Shown here: one piece after another, positions 21,811-26,578 of the stretch
Position numbering within the stretch: the first letter of the stretch is position 1
How the letters are laid out: each line of letters begins with the position of its first letter
From: an uncultured Chloroflexia bacterium
Lineage (GTDB): Bacteria; Chloroflexota; Limnocylindria; Limnocylindrales; CSP1-4
Reading direction: 5' to 3'
NCBI GenBank assembly: GCA_963711105.1
Contig: CAVQCV010000005.1
Span: forward strand, 262,415-326,414
DNA length: 64,000 nt
Notes under the pieces: model-generated
The model's database searches: none
What the model saw: the letters and a program-made list of their open reading frames with translations, nothing else
What the model was told of the DNA's origin: nothing
Made by a program: the position numbers and the translations under genes

Positions 21811-21856
21811 TGTCAAGGACACTTGACACACGCGACCCTGTCAAGCTAACTTGACA
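21811..21856 (+). promoter_or_regulatory. Two palindromic operators TGTCAAG-N4-CTTGACA overlapping the XRE promoter
   Basis: tgtcaaggacacttgaca (21811-21828) and tgtcaagctaacttgaca (21839-21856); contains TTGACA. Confidence 0.85.
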
Positions 21857-21859
21857 GAT

Positions 21860-22057
21860 ATGACGAACGACGTCCGGACACTCCGAGAGGAGCGAGCGTT
21901 GAGTCAGGGAGATCTGGCCAGGCATTTGGGCGTCTCCAGGCAGACGGTCAACGCCATCGAGACGGGCAAGTACCTGCCCTCGCTGCCGCTGGCTTTCGCC
22001 ATCGGGCGGTTCTTTGGTCGCGCGGTAGAGGAGGTCTTCCATGACGAGCCGAAGTAA
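21860..22057 (+). CDS. XRE-family HTH transcriptional regulator
   Basis: LSQ.DLA..LGVSRQTVNAIETGKYLPSLPLAF. Confidence 0.92.
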   Translation: MTNDVRTLREERALSQGDLARHLGVSRQTVNAIETGKYLPSLPLAFAIGRFFGRAVEEVFHDEPK

Positions 22058-22427
22058 GTGGGTGACTCCCGTCTTCGGGTTGTGCCTGGCCGCGGTCATG
22101 GGTCTCGTCGAACTGAAACGCAGTGGCTCCACGCTGAGCGCCGGTCTCGCCGCCGCGGTCGTCGCCGGCTATGCGATCGCGCTGCTGATATTGCGGTCTA
22201 GGAGCGAGACGGTCGGTGCGCTGTCGGGGCTGCCGGTGGACGAGCGTTGGATCTCGATCAACCAGCGAGCCCTTGCCTTCGCCGCCCAGATCGTGGCCGT
22301 CTTCCTGGTGGCCGCGTTCCTGATCACCGAGTTTGCGGGCGGCGCCGCTCTGCCCTACGCCTGGTCGGCGGTCGCCCTGACGGCCGCCTATCTCGGCGGC
22401 GTCCTCTGGTATCGGTGGCGGTCATGA
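22041..22427 (+). CDS. DUF2178-like membrane protein
   Basis: Four TM segments with DER...I..RA; follows an XRE gene as is typical. Confidence 0.75.
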   Translation: MTSRSKWVTPVFGLCLAAVMGLVELKRSGSTLSAGLAAAVVAGYAIALLILRSRSETVGALSGLPVDERWISINQRALAFAAQIVAVFLVAAFLITEFAGGAALPYAWSAVALTAAYLGGVLWYRWRS

Positions 22428-22498
22428 GCGCGTGACCGTCGAACCATTCAGCCGGCGCAGCGGTCAGAATGTTGTGTGTGTGCCTCAACGGAGGAGAG

Positions 22499-23443
22499 AT
22501 GAGCCTCGTAATCGATTCGGTCACAAAGAGCTTCGGCGACGTCCGGGCCCTGGACGACGTATCCCTCGAGATCAGGCCGGGCGAGGTCTTCGGCTTCCTG
22601 GGCGCCAACGGAGCCGGCAAGACGACCGCCATGCGAGTCGTCCTGGACATCCTGCGGCCGGACTCGGGAACGGTCACCTGGAACGGCCTGCCCAACACCG
22701 AAGTCCCACGAGCCACATGGGGCTATCTGCCCGAAGAGCGCGGCCTTTACGCCAAGATGAACGTTCTGGATCAACTGGTCTTCTTTGCCAGGCTCCACGG
22801 CTGCAGTCGCCGGGATGCCGAACGGGACGCCCGCGACTGGCTCGAGCGGTTCAGGATTCCGGAGTACGCCGACCGCCGGGCGGAGCAGCTCTCCAAGGGC
22901 AATCAGCAGAAGATCCAGTTCATCGCCGCCATCCTGCACGACCCGCAGGTGCTCCTGATGGACGAGCCGTTCACGGGCCTCGACCCCGTCAACGCGGCAC
23001 TCCTGAAGGAGGCCTTCCTCGAGATGCGCGACCACGGCAAGACCCTGGTCTTCTCCACCCACCAGATGGAGCAGGTGGAGGAACTGTGCGAGTCCATCGT
23101 CATCCTGGATCGCGGCCGCATCGTCGTCGGCGGTCCGGTGAGGCAGGTCCGCCGTTCGACGGGCCGCCAGGTCGTGCGGCTGGCCGTCGAGGGCGACGAC
23201 GAGGTGGCGTGGCTGGATGAGCTCCCCGGCGTGCACGTCAAGCGCCGCGGACAGGATTACGCGGAAGCAGAGGTGGAGCGAGGCGTCGATCCGGAGAGCG
23301 TGCTTCAGGCGGCTCTCGGCCGAGGCTGCCGTGTCCGCCATTTCGAGATCACTGACCCGTCACTCGAGCAGATCTTCATCGAACGCGTGGGTGGGATAGA
23401 CACCAGCGAGCGGACGCTCGCCCCGAAGGCGGTGCTTGCATGA
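22499..23443 (+). CDS. ABC-2 exporter ATP-binding protein (YhaQ/NatA-like)
   Basis: GANGAGKTT, GYLPEERGLY, LSKGNQQK and DEPFTGLDP. Confidence 0.92.
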   Translation: MSLVIDSVTKSFGDVRALDDVSLEIRPGEVFGFLGANGAGKTTAMRVVLDILRPDSGTVTWNGLPNTEVPRATWGYLPEERGLYAKMNVLDQLVFFARLHGCSRRDAERDARDWLERFRIPEYADRRAEQLSKGNQQKIQFIAAILHDPQVLLMDEPFTGLDPVNAALLKEAFLEMRDHGKTLVFSTHQMEQVEELCESIVILDRGRIVVGGPVRQVRRSTGRQVVRLAVEGDDEVAWLDELPGVHVKRRGQDYAEAEVERGVDPESVLQAALGRGCRVRHFEITDPSLEQIFIERVGGIDTSERTLAPKAVLA

Positions 23444-24732
23444 GCGGCTGGCGAACCTTGATGCCGAATGCCTGGTACGTGGCCGTCCGGGAATTCAAGG
23501 GCCGGGTGCGAACCCGCAGCTTCATGGCCGGCACGATCCTGCTGGCAGTGATCGCCTTCGCCGTCACCGAAAGCCCAGTTGCCATCGATGCCGTCGTGGG
23601 TACCAGCCAGACGAAGCTGGCAGTCGTGACCGTGGCCGCCGATCTGCCGGCCGACGCCCAGACGGTAGTCGTGGGCACGCTCAACAGCGTCGCCTCCTCC
23701 AGCGCGCCCTTCGTCGTGACCTGGCTCCCTGGCAGCGACGTCGCCGCCGCCCAGGCGGACCTCGAGAAGGGCAAGTTCGACGCGGTACTCGTCGTGGCCA
23801 GGGTCAACGGCGATCTGGCCTTCACGTTGCATACGGACATGGCGTCCGACGGCCGGCCGGTCCAGAGTATCGCCGCGGCGGCCCAAACCCTGGTTATCGA
23901 GGACAGCCTGGCCAAGGTAGGCAAATCGATCAGCTCGATCAGCCACGTCACCCTCGACGTAGTCCCGGTGAAGCCCGGCTCGGCCGCGCCCAACAGCTTG
24001 TCGCGAGAGGTCTCGAGCAGCCTGTTGTCGACGGGCCTCATCGTCCTGATCTTCATGGCCATCGTGACCTACGGCACCTGGGTCGCGATGAGCGTGGCCG
24101 AGGAGAAGGGCAGTCGGGTCATGGAGTTGATGCTCAACGCGACCACTCCGCTGCAGATGCTGTGCGGCAAGGTCCTGGGCAACGGTGCCGCCGGTCTGAC
24201 CCAGTACGGGCTCATCCTCGCCGCCGTCGTGGCCGGCATGGTGGCTCAGGGACCGATCAGAGCCAGAGTCCTGGGATCGTCCGGAGCCGGCGTGGAGTTC
24301 GGTGGCCTGACTCCGGCGGTTCTCGTGGCCTTCATCGTCCTGTTCGTGTGCGGCTTCACGCTCTACTCCCTCCTGTATGCCGCCCTCGGTTCGCTTGTGA
24401 GCCGTCAGGAGGATGTCCAGAGCGCGACCTCGCCAATGATGATGATCGTCTTCATCGGGTACTTCGCCTCGATCTTCGCGCTCCAGTCGATCGAGGAGCC
24501 GTGGGTCAAGATCATGTCGTTCGTCCCGTTCTTCAGCCCGTACTTGATGCTGGCGCGCGTCTCTGTGGGCCATGTCGAGTTGTGGGAGTTTGTCCTGGCG
24601 ATCGCGCTGCTTCTGGTTACCATCGGTATCGCCCTGGTCGTCGCGGCCCGGATATACAGCGCCGGCGTGTTGCTGTATGGCCAGCGGGTCGGGCTGCGGC
24701 AGATCCTCAAGGCGACCAGGGTCTCGCGCTAG
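23440..24732 (+). CDS. ABC-2 exporter permease (YhaP/NatB-like)
   Basis: VAEEKGSRVMEL, GKVLG and PFFSP.LML.R. Confidence 0.9.
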   Translation: MSGWRTLMPNAWYVAVREFKGRVRTRSFMAGTILLAVIAFAVTESPVAIDAVVGTSQTKLAVVTVAADLPADAQTVVVGTLNSVASSSAPFVVTWLPGSDVAAAQADLEKGKFDAVLVVARVNGDLAFTLHTDMASDGRPVQSIAAAAQTLVIEDSLAKVGKSISSISHVTLDVVPVKPGSAAPNSLSREVSSSLLSTGLIVLIFMAIVTYGTWVAMSVAEEKGSRVMELMLNATTPLQMLCGKVLGNGAAGLTQYGLILAAVVAGMVAQGPIRARVLGSSGAGVEFGGLTPAVLVAFIVLFVCGFTLYSLLYAALGSLVSRQEDVQSATSPMMMIVFIGYFASIFALQSIEEPWVKIMSFVPFFSPYLMLARVSVGHVELWEFVLAIALLLVTIGIALVVAARIYSAGVLLYGQRVGLRQILKATRVSR

Positions 24733-24774: not shown

Positions 24775-25503
24775 CTAGTCGTCGAGCGGCAGCTTCTGGA
24801 TCAGGGCCAGGACCGGGCGCGCCGGCGCGGGAGCCGGGTCGGGCACGGCATGGAGCGGCACCTCTCCGGGCTGGGTCGGGATCCAGCGCCACAGATCGCT
24901 GTGGCGACCGGGCAGGTACGGGCTGCGCACGTGGCGAGCCATCACTCCCGCCAGGCCCTGCTGCGCGACCGCGAAATGGAGCTCTCGGCCGTCTCCGACG
25001 ACGCCCGGCACGATGACCAGTTCCGGGCTCGGCGTGACCAGCTTTGCGAGCCGCTCGCGGCGCTTGACGAGCGGTTGAGCGACCAGCGGCCGCCCGGCCG
25101 TCCAGAGCAGGTCGAAGACCAGGTAAACCGGCCCCTGTCCGCCGGTCGCCTCGCCGTCCAAGCGCCGCTGCATGGCCGCGTGATCGGTCCGCCCCGCTTT
25201 GTCCGGCACGACCAGTTCGCCGTCCAGGACGGCCGGCAGATCGGCCACCAGGGCGGCGACATACGCGAGCTCCGGCACGAGGGCAGTGATGTCCCGGCCA
25301 GTGACGTCCAGGAAACGAATGGCCGGCTCGCCGTTGGGTCCGGGCTCGACGAAAGCGAGGGCGCGGCGGCCGCCCCAACTCGGTTCGAAGACATGCTCCA
25401 TCGAATCGAACGGCGCCTCGGCCGAGCGGGGCATCATCGGCCGGAGCGTGGCCGGCAGGCCGGGAACGTCGCCGCTCAGGCTGAGGTCGAGCTGATCTGG
25501 CAC
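24775..25503 (-). CDS. ATP-dependent DNA ligase adenylation-domain homologue, apparently catalytically inactive
   Basis: LigD-like LRPM, LDGELVV, VFDLL and SPY.PG are present. Motif I reads EPSWGGRRA instead of E.KWDG.RA. No OB domain. Confidence 0.75.
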   Translation of the reverse strand: MPDQLDLSLSGDVPGLPATLRPMMPRSAEAPFDSMEHVFEPSWGGRRALAFVEPGPNGEPAIRFLDVTGRDITALVPELAYVAALVADLPAVLDGELVVPDKAGRTDHAAMQRRLDGEATGGQGPVYLVFDLLWTAGRPLVAQPLVKRRERLAKLVTPSPELVIVPGVVGDGRELHFAVAQQGLAGVMARHVRSPYLPGRHSDLWRWIPTQPGEVPLHAVPDPAPAPARPVLALIQKLPLDD

Positions 25504-25597
25504 GTCGCGATGGTAGCCGCCGTGGGGCCGTTGCGGAGCGAGGGTTGCGGACTTCGTCCGCCGTGGCCCGAACGGCCCAACACATCCACCGCCGGCC

Positions 25598-26578
25598 TCA
25601 GTACTCCTGAGGCACGAAGTTCTGGCTGCCGAGGGGCGGCCGGATGTAGGTCTCGTCTTCCTGGCGGGGCGGCAGCTGGATGGCCGGACCGGCGACCTTC
25701 TCGTACGGGATCACGCTGAGCAGATGGCGGATGGTGTTGAGGCGGGCCCGCTTCTTGTCGTCGGCTTCGACGACCCACCAGGGCGCCTCGGGGATGTCCG
25801 TGGCGGCGAACATGGCGTCCTTCGCCCTTGAGTACTCGACCCACTTCGCGCGCGACATAACGTCCATCGGCGAGAGCTTCCAGTGCTTCGTCGGGTCGGC
25901 CAGGCGTGCTTGAAAGCGCCGCTCCTGTTCCGTGTCGCCCACTGAGAACCAGTACTTGATCAGGACGATGCCGGACCTTATCAGCATCCGCTCGAACTCG
26001 GGGCAGGAGCGCAGGAAGTCGCGGTACTCGTCGTCGTTGCAGAAGCCCATGACGCGCTCTACTCCGGCGCGGTTGTACCAGCTGCGGTCGAACAGGACCA
26101 TCTCTCCGGCGGCGGGCAGCTGGGCCACGTAGCGCTGGAAGTACCACTGGCTCTTCTCGCGGTCGGTGGGCGTGCCGAGGGCCACGACGCGGCAGACGCG
26201 GGGATTGAGGGGCGCGGCGATGGTCTTGATCGCGCCGCCTTTGCCGGCGGCGTCCCGGCCCTCGAACAGGACCACGACCTTGAGGCCGCGGGCCTTGATC
26301 CACTCCTGGAGCTTGACCAGCTCCACGTTGAGCCGCGCCAGCTCGGATTCGTAGTACTTGGTGTCGAGCTTCCTGCCGGGCCGCTGGACGTAGTCGGTGT
26401 CCGGGCCGGTTGGGGGTGGGGGAGTGGCGGCGTGGCGGCGAACCTCACGCGCCAGCATCCGCTCCCGGGCGACGACGGCCGCGGCTGCGGCGACCGCGAC
26501 CCGGTTCGGGTCGGCGGAGGGCGGCAGCGCGCCTCTCGTGCTGGCGTAGCTCAGTCGATTGCGAACAACCCTGGACAT
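25598..26578 (-). CDS. ppk2: Polyphosphate kinase 2 (class I-like); start uncertain (alternative ~26458)
   Basis: FEGRDAAGKGG, QWYFQRY, FDRSWYNRAGVERVMGF, WKLSPMD and DDKKRARLN. Confidence 0.95.
   Translation of the reverse strand: MSRVVRNRLSYASTRGALPPSADPNRVAVAAAAAVVARERMLAREVRRHAATPPPPTGPDTDYVQRPGRKLDTKYYESELARLNVELVKLQEWIKARGLKVVVLFEGRDAAGKGGAIKTIAAPLNPRVCRVVALGTPTDREKSQWYFQRYVAQLPAAGEMVLFDRSWYNRAGVERVMGFCNDDEYRDFLRSCPEFERMLIRSGIVLIKYWFSVGDTEQERRFQARLADPTKHWKLSPMDVMSRAKWVEYSRAKDAMFAATDIPEAPWWVVEADDKKRARLNTIRHLLSVIPYEKVAGPAIQLPPRQEDETYIRPPLGSQNFVPQEY

Follow-up and report, generated by a model that had tools for sequence, protein, structure and literature searches.

We analysed a window of 64,000 nucleotides (C5:262415-326414) from an uncultured Chloroflexia bacterium of the class Limnocylindria, in which one reverse-strand gene encodes a protein of 242 amino acids (aa) with the body of a DNA ligase and without its catalytic residues. 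This protein, referred to here as the pseudo-ligase, is on balance probably a non-catalytic accessory, either a scaffold or a regulator, of Ku-dependent non-homologous end joining (NHEJ). The reading draws on the loss of the catalytic motifs throughout the family, on two conserved terminal peptides and on diverged relatives encoded directly behind ku. The genomes compared are metagenome-assembled genomes (MAGs), and the positions of all features are collected in Table 1.

The open reading frame (ORF) is uninterrupted, with no internal stop in the ORF list of the window. The start codon lies two codons ahead of the N-terminal DQL in 58 of 66 related loci, which are labelled Chloroflexota or Limnocylindria, with two 'Anaerolineaceae' and one 'Sulfomarinibacteraceae'. 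Pfam PF01068 matches the protein with an E value of 1.3e-12 (48.3 bits, cut-off 26.2). The nearest NCBIfam models are those of LigD and NHEJ ligases, all of them far under their cut-offs (TIGR02779, 98.6 against 227.75 bits; PRK09632, 101.8 against 989 bits). Among solved structures, the ligase domain of Mycobacterium tuberculosis LigD matches best (1vs0, E 3e-16), and the nearest paralogue in the genome is an 889-aa LigD with 35% identity over 192 aa. In an AlphaFold2 model built on 121 homologues, residues ~31-198 are confident, with core blocks at a pLDDT (predicted local distance difference test) of 74-95; the value is 36-42 over residues 1-30 and below 50 over residues 212-242. The top Foldseek matches to the core are nucleotidyltransferase (NTase) domains of ATP-dependent DNA ligases (TMq 0.61-0.66), including LigD (6nhx/1vs0; 31-32% identity, TMq 0.61, E ~5e-12). 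The OB domain is absent from the protein: PF04679 gives no match, and the chain stops 33 residues past motif V, where residues 209-242 form a variable linker and then a short tail. Together with the model, this bears out the preliminary description, made from the DNA alone, which had reported no OB domain. From these comparisons, the fold is homologous to ligase adenylation domains, and the protein is a homologue of the LigD ligase domain that is predicted not to be a functional member, because it lacks the lysine and the OB domain and scores under the cut-offs. In databases, the pseudo-ligases are named 'ATP-dependent DNA ligase' or 'bifunctional NHEJ protein LigD'. These names are homology-based and overstate the ligase complement of these genomes. 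An Atlas search and a cluster look-up likewise gave automatic ligase names, with no taxa attached.

The catalytic motifs were read residue by residue against 1vs0 and against the genome's own LigD. Motif I is EGKWDGYR in LigD and EPSWGGRR in the pseudo-ligase, motif Ia is SRSG and DVTG, motif IV is EGVIAK and AGVMAR, and motif V is WLKVK and WRWIP, respectively, whereas LDGE, FDLL and SPYLPG are preserved. Each substitution in motifs I, Ia, IV and V listed in the preliminary description was confirmed in both alignments. The four other PF01068 genes of the genome (two LigB-like, one LigD and one LigC-like) have lysine in motifs I, IV and V; therefore, the loss is not a K-to-R drift driven by G+C content. 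The pseudo-ligase can, we infer, neither adenylate itself nor seal DNA, because it has lost its lysine nucleophile together with the remaining lysines that contact phosphate, and the OB domain is gone in its entirety.

A word-indexed homologue search gave 801 matches, and the best 120 of them (62-95% identity, about 242-245 aa) were aligned with the window protein in 121 rows. Where names are given for these 120, they are those of Limnocylindrales (Chloroflexota) MAGs. The motif I lysine is present in 0/121 sequences; position 42 among the 120 tallied is R in 68, S in 36, N in 10, C in three, I in two and V in one. The surrounding W43, G44, G45 and R47 are invariant (121/121). Likewise, R190 stands in place of the motif IV lysine in 121/121, and position 185 is R in 53, A in 43 and E in none. 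No column holds lysine in more than 59 of the 121 rows; thus, no alternative nucleophile is conserved. In total, 44 columns are invariant across the 121 sequences, and these include columns in the tails. The ratio of nonsynonymous to synonymous substitution (dN/dS) was calculated by the Nei-Gojobori method for 63 coding sequences in 1953 pairs, with 4/66 loci left out because the full ORF was not recovered. The median is 0.30 for the whole gene, 0.27 for the core, 0.33 for residues 1-21 and 0.21 for the C tail, and a value of ~2 occurs in the poorly alignable linker 209-228. Full-length orthologues (at least 190 bits) are present in 44/61 sampled genomes of the family to which the window belongs and in 9/9 of its genus, within a sampling of 201 genomes of the class. 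The class-wide (201-genome) and phylum-wide (301-genome) tallies, here and below, rest partly on unpublished genomes (G151, G112, G067, G096, G091, G106, G123, G087, G159, G235, G356 and G443), of which the 44/61 count and the set of fetched loci are free. The preliminary description had asked whether the loss is family-wide with dN/dS below 1 or a strain-specific decay in which close homologues keep KxDG. The 0/121 count and the median of 0.30 answer in favour of the former, and the comparisons support catalytic loss as a family trait under purifying selection.

Both tails of the protein are conserved, and both are modelled as disordered. The N-terminus follows the pattern M-x-D-Q-L-x-L-x-L-[TS]-G-D. 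In the 115 aligned sequences that have this end, D3, Q4, L7, L9, G11 and D12 are each present in 115/115 and L5 in 114, so that QL[SND]L[SDR]L is found in 114/115 and the remaining one reads QM. The motif is kept in relatives down to 46% identity. By comparison, QLxLxL occurs 89 times in the 3.27 million residues of the genome's ORFs of at least 80 aa, and inside the first 15 residues in 3/14,613 ORFs. In the available excerpts of two sources, the hexameric β-clamp-binding consensus is given as QLxLxL (PMC4564189), and the clamp motif of Escherichia coli Hda as 6-QLSLPL-11 in a flexible N-terminal loop (PMC5397184). Residues 4-9 of the pseudo-ligase, QLDLSL, fit this hexamer, and the clamp-like N-terminus first noted in the preliminary description stands, with its conservation and its position in a low-confidence tail, as a resemblance. 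The DnaN of the genome was identified at L072 1498-2616 and aligned.

The C-terminal tail follows RPVLALIQ[RK]LP[LF][DE]D in the clade of the window. Its residues 236-240, QKLPL, had also been taken for a clamp motif, and this claim did not survive. In more distant members, R, A, L or S takes the place of the Q, while P-x-L-A-L...R-L-P-L persists; therefore, this is not a Q-based clamp motif, and active ligases encoded beside ku carry the tail too. The conserved unit is RPxLALxxRLPL (RPxLALIxRLPL in the window type). The strict pattern is found once in the genome, in the pseudo-ligase gene, and another C-terminal match to the tail pattern, in an ABC ATPase, was judged to be chance. As read from these alignments, conservation shows selection preserving the fold, the N-terminal M-x-DQLxLxL and the C-terminal RPxLALIxRLPL.

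The link to ku was noticed by comparing the class-wide match lists of the family profile and of Ku. Ku was found in 187/201 genomes of the class, and weaker full-length matches to the family (105-129 bits, about 230-240 aa) adjoin it. Fifteen such loci were fetched; a sister family supplied 14 of them, and the remaining one belongs to genus g16, which is in the same family as the window. In 15/15, ku is directly upstream on the same strand of a diverged subfamily with the motif I FEPWWPGxR, and in the five pairs with both ORFs delimited the gap is -4 to +25 nt. A pattern scan of 185,579 species genomes found 53 loci of this subfamily, and ku is directly upstream in 50/50 of those with enough upstream DNA; the 15-locus and 50-locus sets overlap in some genomes. 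The ku-adjacent proteins have the same architecture as the window protein and are further degenerated: motif IV is GLSAR, motif III is LDGTLLV, in which the Glu is lost, and motif IIIa is xDLLW, in which the Phe is lost. Both tails are recognizable, with [DE]QL[SP]LP at the N-terminus (some exactly QLSLPL) and RP[TL]LAL[IL]xRLPL at the C-terminus. Among the 43 ORFs recognized at the 53 loci (10 were missed), the lysine site is W in 43, the motif III Glu is T in 42 and an N-terminal QLxL is present in 41. Among the 15 fetched members, QLxL is found in 13 and the full hexamer QLxLxL in four. The C-tail motif is present in 15/15 ku-adjacent pseudo-ligases and also in 9/10 ku-adjacent active ligases. 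The latter belong to another Limnocylindria family (L095-L104), in which ku is followed by an apparently active 354-aa ligase (FELKWDGIR, GIVAK, weak OB match) that ends, at 9/10 loci, in the same tail, ERPRLxVLxSLPF.

Genera g3 and g16 of the window's family have the ku-adjacent type only, and in g3 the gene order is ku, dead ligase, LigD. No genome in the class (201) and phylum (301) samples shows both the window type and the ku-adjacent type. The OB-less tailed form is confined to the class in the 301-genome phylum sample. In other classes, ku is followed by ligase-like genes of 344-385 aa, of which some are apparently active (FEVKWDGLR, N-terminal DQLSIEL, C-terminal LTRFPF) and some lack the lysine (FEVRWDGLR, FEVAWGGVR or FEVAWDGVR; C-terminal LPRLPL). 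In a maximum-likelihood tree, the window clade has support of 100/100 and the ku-adjacent dead clade 100/99. The best explanation for this pattern is that the family would be part of a Chloroflexota lineage of small ligase genes directly behind ku, and that in the window lineage the gene would have been relocated away from ku and provided with its own leaderless-type promoter.

Ku recruits LigD in bacterial end joining. In M. tuberculosis, according to the available part of PMC13717202, the LigD ligase domain meets the Ku C-terminus at D522, K579 and L580. By the 1vs0 alignment, the equivalents in the pseudo-ligase are position 88 (D/E in 115/121), E150 (117/121) and R151. We propose, as a conditional mechanism, that Ku, or DNA ends with Ku on them, would be bound by the ligase-shaped body, by the C tail or by both, in the manner of the LigD ligase domain. 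A second partner, most plausibly the β sliding clamp, would be linked to the complex through the N-terminal peptide. The effect could have either sign: help, by scaffolding, end protection or synapsis, or hindrance, as a decoy for LigD. The preliminary description had proposed a DNA-repair adaptor on the model of ImuB; the non-catalytic repair role is retained here, and the linkage to ku points to end joining in place of a general ImuB-like scaffold. A narrower and rather unlikely form of the proposal is a third, non-enzymatic end-joining component, a Ku-docking dead ligase tethered by an Hda-like peptide to the sliding clamp, which would couple NHEJ to the replication state. If this were true, LigD would be kept off Ku at clamp-marked replicating DNA, or Ku-bound ends would be delivered to clamp-loaded DNA, and the protein would be a bacterial counterpart of the eukaryotic NHEJ regulators with Ku-binding motifs.

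Several observations weigh against an accessory role in end joining. First, ku is found within 6 kb in 0/66 loci of the window's clade and does not adjoin the gene in the window genome, and no repair gene adjoins the pseudo-ligase across the 66 loci. The same genome has Ku at C6:114102-115025 and the catalytic 889-aa LigD at C5:755578-758247, both outside the window; the earlier statement that no Ku or LigD lies nearby is thus true for the window and misses the tie between the family and ku that exists in sister lineages. The Ku link is drawn from relatives, and the relocated gene may no longer have it. Second, the window clade keeps the ribose- and adenine-contacting R47, E96 and F130 in 121/121, whereas the ku-adjacent clade has lost the Glu and Phe, and this could mean a ligand-binding role in the window clade. 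Third, many ku-adjacent members read QLPLP-x rather than QLxLxL, and an apparently active ku-adjacent ligase of another class carries DQLSIEL at its N-terminus; therefore, the N tail could be a docking peptide for Ku or another NHEJ protein and not a clamp motif. Finally, the order of the two dead clades relative to the active ku-adjacent ligases and LigD domains has a tree support of 72, which does not separate one inactivation from two.

The first alternative draws on the same evidence as the accessory reading. Here, the dead domain would fill the LigD-binding site on Ku and block end joining, for example when clamp-tethered at replication forks. As the data are silent on whether the effect is positive or negative, the observations behind a helper serve an inhibitor equally, and a full LigD and a LigC are available in the genome to compete with. 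The residue equivalent to LigD K579 is Glu in 117/121, and a K579E substitution in M. tuberculosis LigD increased Ku affinity, as stated in the accessible part of PMC13717202. However, this analogy spans phyla, and Ku C-termini vary between species. Co-transcription with ku in the sister lineages would also make the protein a constitutive inhibitor of its partner, which is less economical than a helper. We consider a decoy improbable.

Somewhat less probable still is a sensor, in which the dead pocket would bind NAD or an adenine nucleotide, or else a DNA end with a 5'-adenylate or a 5'-phosphate, without catalysis and would signal or protect, with Ku being optional. Its pocket residues R47, D94/E96, F130 (the stacking Phe) and R190 are invariant in 121/121 of the window clade. 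The gene is apart from ku, and in 32/66 loci it lies behind a polyphosphate kinase 2 (PPK2) gene on the same strand, with some PPK2 matches 13-18 nt ahead of the pseudo-ligase match, a spacing at which co-transcription of the two genes is possible. Against this, the ku-adjacent members have lost the Glu (T in 42/43) and the Phe, yet keep both tails; therefore, the pocket is not what the whole family conserves, and the nucleotide-binding alternative offered in the preliminary description is weakened to that extent. In addition, the phosphate-contacting lysines are all gone, and the more distant half of the clade has no PPK2.

Some ligases mutated at the motif I lysine can still seal pre-adenylated nicks, and the motif III and IIIa residues are preserved in the window clade. 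A residual or non-canonical catalysis is conceivable on these grounds, either as sealing or processing of pre-adenylated nicks without self-adenylation or by means of another nucleophile. It is nevertheless very unlikely, as a conserved Lys is found nowhere, position 42 takes six different residues (R, S, N, C, I and V), and the protein has neither the Asp of motif I nor the Glu and Lys of motif IV; both Lys of motif V and the entire OB domain, which contains motif VI, are likewise gone. Least credible of all is a decaying remnant or annotation artefact without function, which the ruined catalytic motifs and the purely homology-based database names might suggest, since 63 coding sequences have an unbroken frame and a dN/dS of 0.30, the 44 invariant columns in 121 sequences include the tails, the promoter element is conserved and the family is spread over several genera.

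Table 1. Positions of the pseudo-ligase, its parts and its neighbours in the window.
Feature	Position in window	Strand	Detail
Pseudo-ligase coding sequence	24775..25503	-	242 aa; GTG start 25501-25503, stop 24775-24777; from the ORF list
Probable -10 hexamer TACCAT	25510-25515	-	-12 to -7 of the GTG, 6 nt upstream
N-terminal putative docking peptide	25468..25497	-	Residues 3-12 DQLDLSLSGD; family consensus DQLSLSLTGD; core QLxLxL, residues 4-9
Degenerate LigD-type NTase (adenylation) domain	24880..25413	-	Residues 31-208; AlphaFold2 and Foldseek
Dead motif I	25363..25389	-	Residues 39-47 FEPSWGGRR; KxDGxR with K->S and D->G
Kept motif III	25210..25230	-	Residues 92-98 VLDGELV; D94 and E96 invariant in 121/121
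Kept motif IIIa	25102..25122	-	Residues 128-134 LVFDLLW; F130, D131 and W134 invariant in 121/121
Dead motif IV	24934..24951	-	Residues 185-190 AGVMAR; EGxxxK with E->A and K->R
Dead motif V	24877..24894	-	Residues 204-209 LWRWIP; AWLKVK in the genome's own LigD
C-terminal putative docking peptide	24778..24819	-	Residues 229-242 RPVLALIQKLPLDD; P230, L232, L234 and P239 invariant
PPK2 gene	25598-26500	-	PF03976, E 8e-105; directly upstream of the pseudo-ligase
Co-directional block	21851-24732	+	XRE-type helix-turn-helix protein, small membrane protein (weak DUF3796), DrrA-like ABC ATPase, ABC-2 permease

The pseudo-ligase probably has a leaderless or near-leaderless mRNA, because the -10 box lies 6 nt from the GTG and no Shine-Dalgarno sequence is present at the gene. 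Among the 66 related loci, a TA[CGA]NAT (TANNNT) hexamer, mainly TACCAT or TAGTAT, stands at -12/-13 in 42, and TANNNT stands at -14/-15 in 10 more loci; the control at random positions gave 22/13,200. A Shine-Dalgarno-like tetramer is found in 3/66. The leaderless-type promoter (TACCAT) had been proposed at the outset and is upheld by the conservation of the box. We rejected the promoter word GCGTACCATCG as a special regulon signal, as TACCATCG followed by a start codon is found at other genes. The recurrence of TACCATCG followed by ATG elsewhere in the genome marks a general promoter form. A LexA-type GAAC-N4-GTTC box was not seen by eye upstream of the pseudo-ligase.

Neighbouring genes were assigned by targeted tblastn and Pfam, as all-against-all ORF clustering collapsed on spurious high-G+C ORFs. 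The co-directional block downstream runs convergent to the pseudo-ligase, and its ABC ATPase and ABC-2 permease are found downstream and convergent in 53-56/66 loci, including members that are 47-50% identical. The transporter was set aside as a functional partner and taken as synteny owing to this convergent orientation. More distant members have a divergent S9 peptidase or α/β hydrolase upstream and no PPK2; PPK2 was likewise set aside as synteny, as it is missing in the distant half of the clade.

Several further observations concern the relatives and the genome at large. Three ku-following genes of 352-385 aa in other classes (L166, L168 and L169) have an OB-sized C-terminal part and keep the motif IV lysine, with FEVRWDGLR, FEVAWGGVR or FEVAWDGVR as motif I; they may be additional ku-following ligases that died independently. 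One sister-family genus has, just in front of ku and the pseudo-ligase and in the same orientation, genes for a DUF6812 protein and a large protein with a methyltransferase domain (L080 6531-7136 (-) and L082 3986-4582 (+)). Six ku-adjacent loci (L110, L118, L123, L142, L157 and L158) come from MAGs labelled Methylomirabilota, Pleomorphomonadaceae, Zixiibacteriota or Steroidobacteraceae. Most of them are 67-72% identical to Limnocylindria members and the short fragments L157 and L158 are 78-82% identical; mis-binning is more likely than transfer as the source of these labels. A 326-aa ligase in G125 was set aside as an unrelated, active stand-alone ligase with no tails and no Ku. In the window genome, two near-identical LigB-type ATP ligase genes (C1:188587-190098 and C2:5653-7572, both with EDKYDGIR, EGLMVK and WLKMK) are on separate contigs and may be a recent duplication or an assembly duplicate. 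A DnaE2-like polymerase gene beside an ImuB-like Y-family gene (C6:397633-406506) looks like a mutasome cassette; the ImuB-like ORF has the canonical clamp motif QLTLF, and a DinB ORF has QIGMF.

Bacterial NHEJ is usually presented as the work of two proteins, Ku and LigD. Our literature search, which had most subscription journals outside its reach, found no account of a dead ATP-ligase domain in bacteria, of a pseudo-ligase in a ku operon or of an adaptor between Ku and the clamp, and PMC6222260 proved to be off the subject. A dead ligase is present in ku operons across one Chloroflexota class and is retained after leaving ku. If the proposed role is true, bacterial NHEJ would gain an accessory or regulatory tier in the form of a conserved dead ligase with docking peptides, which would also be the first candidate link from Ku-dependent repair to the sliding clamp.

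Among known systems, the closest is the ligase domain of LigD (M. tuberculosis Rv0938; 1vs0, 6nhx, 6nhz; TIGR02779/PRK09632), which shares the NTase fold, motifs III and IIIa and SPYxPG. In contrast to LigD, the pseudo-ligase has neither Lys nor Asp in motif I, neither Glu nor Lys in motif IV and no Lys in motif V; it is without the OB, PE and POL domains, and it adds the conserved N- and C-terminal peptides. The active ku-adjacent Limnocylindria ligases of ~354 aa have the LigD-type NTase domain and the C-terminal peptide in common with it, and they lie beside ku like the dead subfamily. However, KWDGxR and GIVAK are intact in these ligases, a weak OB domain is still present and the QLxLxL N-terminus is missing, whereas the window protein is dead, OB-less and off ku. 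ImuB, of the ImuA'-ImuB-DnaE2 mutasome, is an inactive member of an enzyme family with a clamp-binding-type peptide; it has a Y-family polymerase fold and belongs to another pathway and context, and no link of the pseudo-ligase to imuB or dnaE2 was seen. Hda, like the pseudo-ligase, has a hexameric QLxLxL at the extreme, flexible N-terminus, and some ku-adjacent members match its QLSLPL exactly, although Hda is an AAA+ replication-control protein that is unrelated in fold and function. Finally, a catalytically inactive DNA ligase IV supports vertebrate NHEJ structurally, as stated in the available parts of PMC9638927 and PMC11754673. The ligase IV cases are engineered point mutants of a full enzyme, whereas the pseudo-ligase is natural, truncated, separately encoded and bacterial. 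The parallel, a ligase body with a structural role in a Ku-dependent complex, thus holds by analogy at most.

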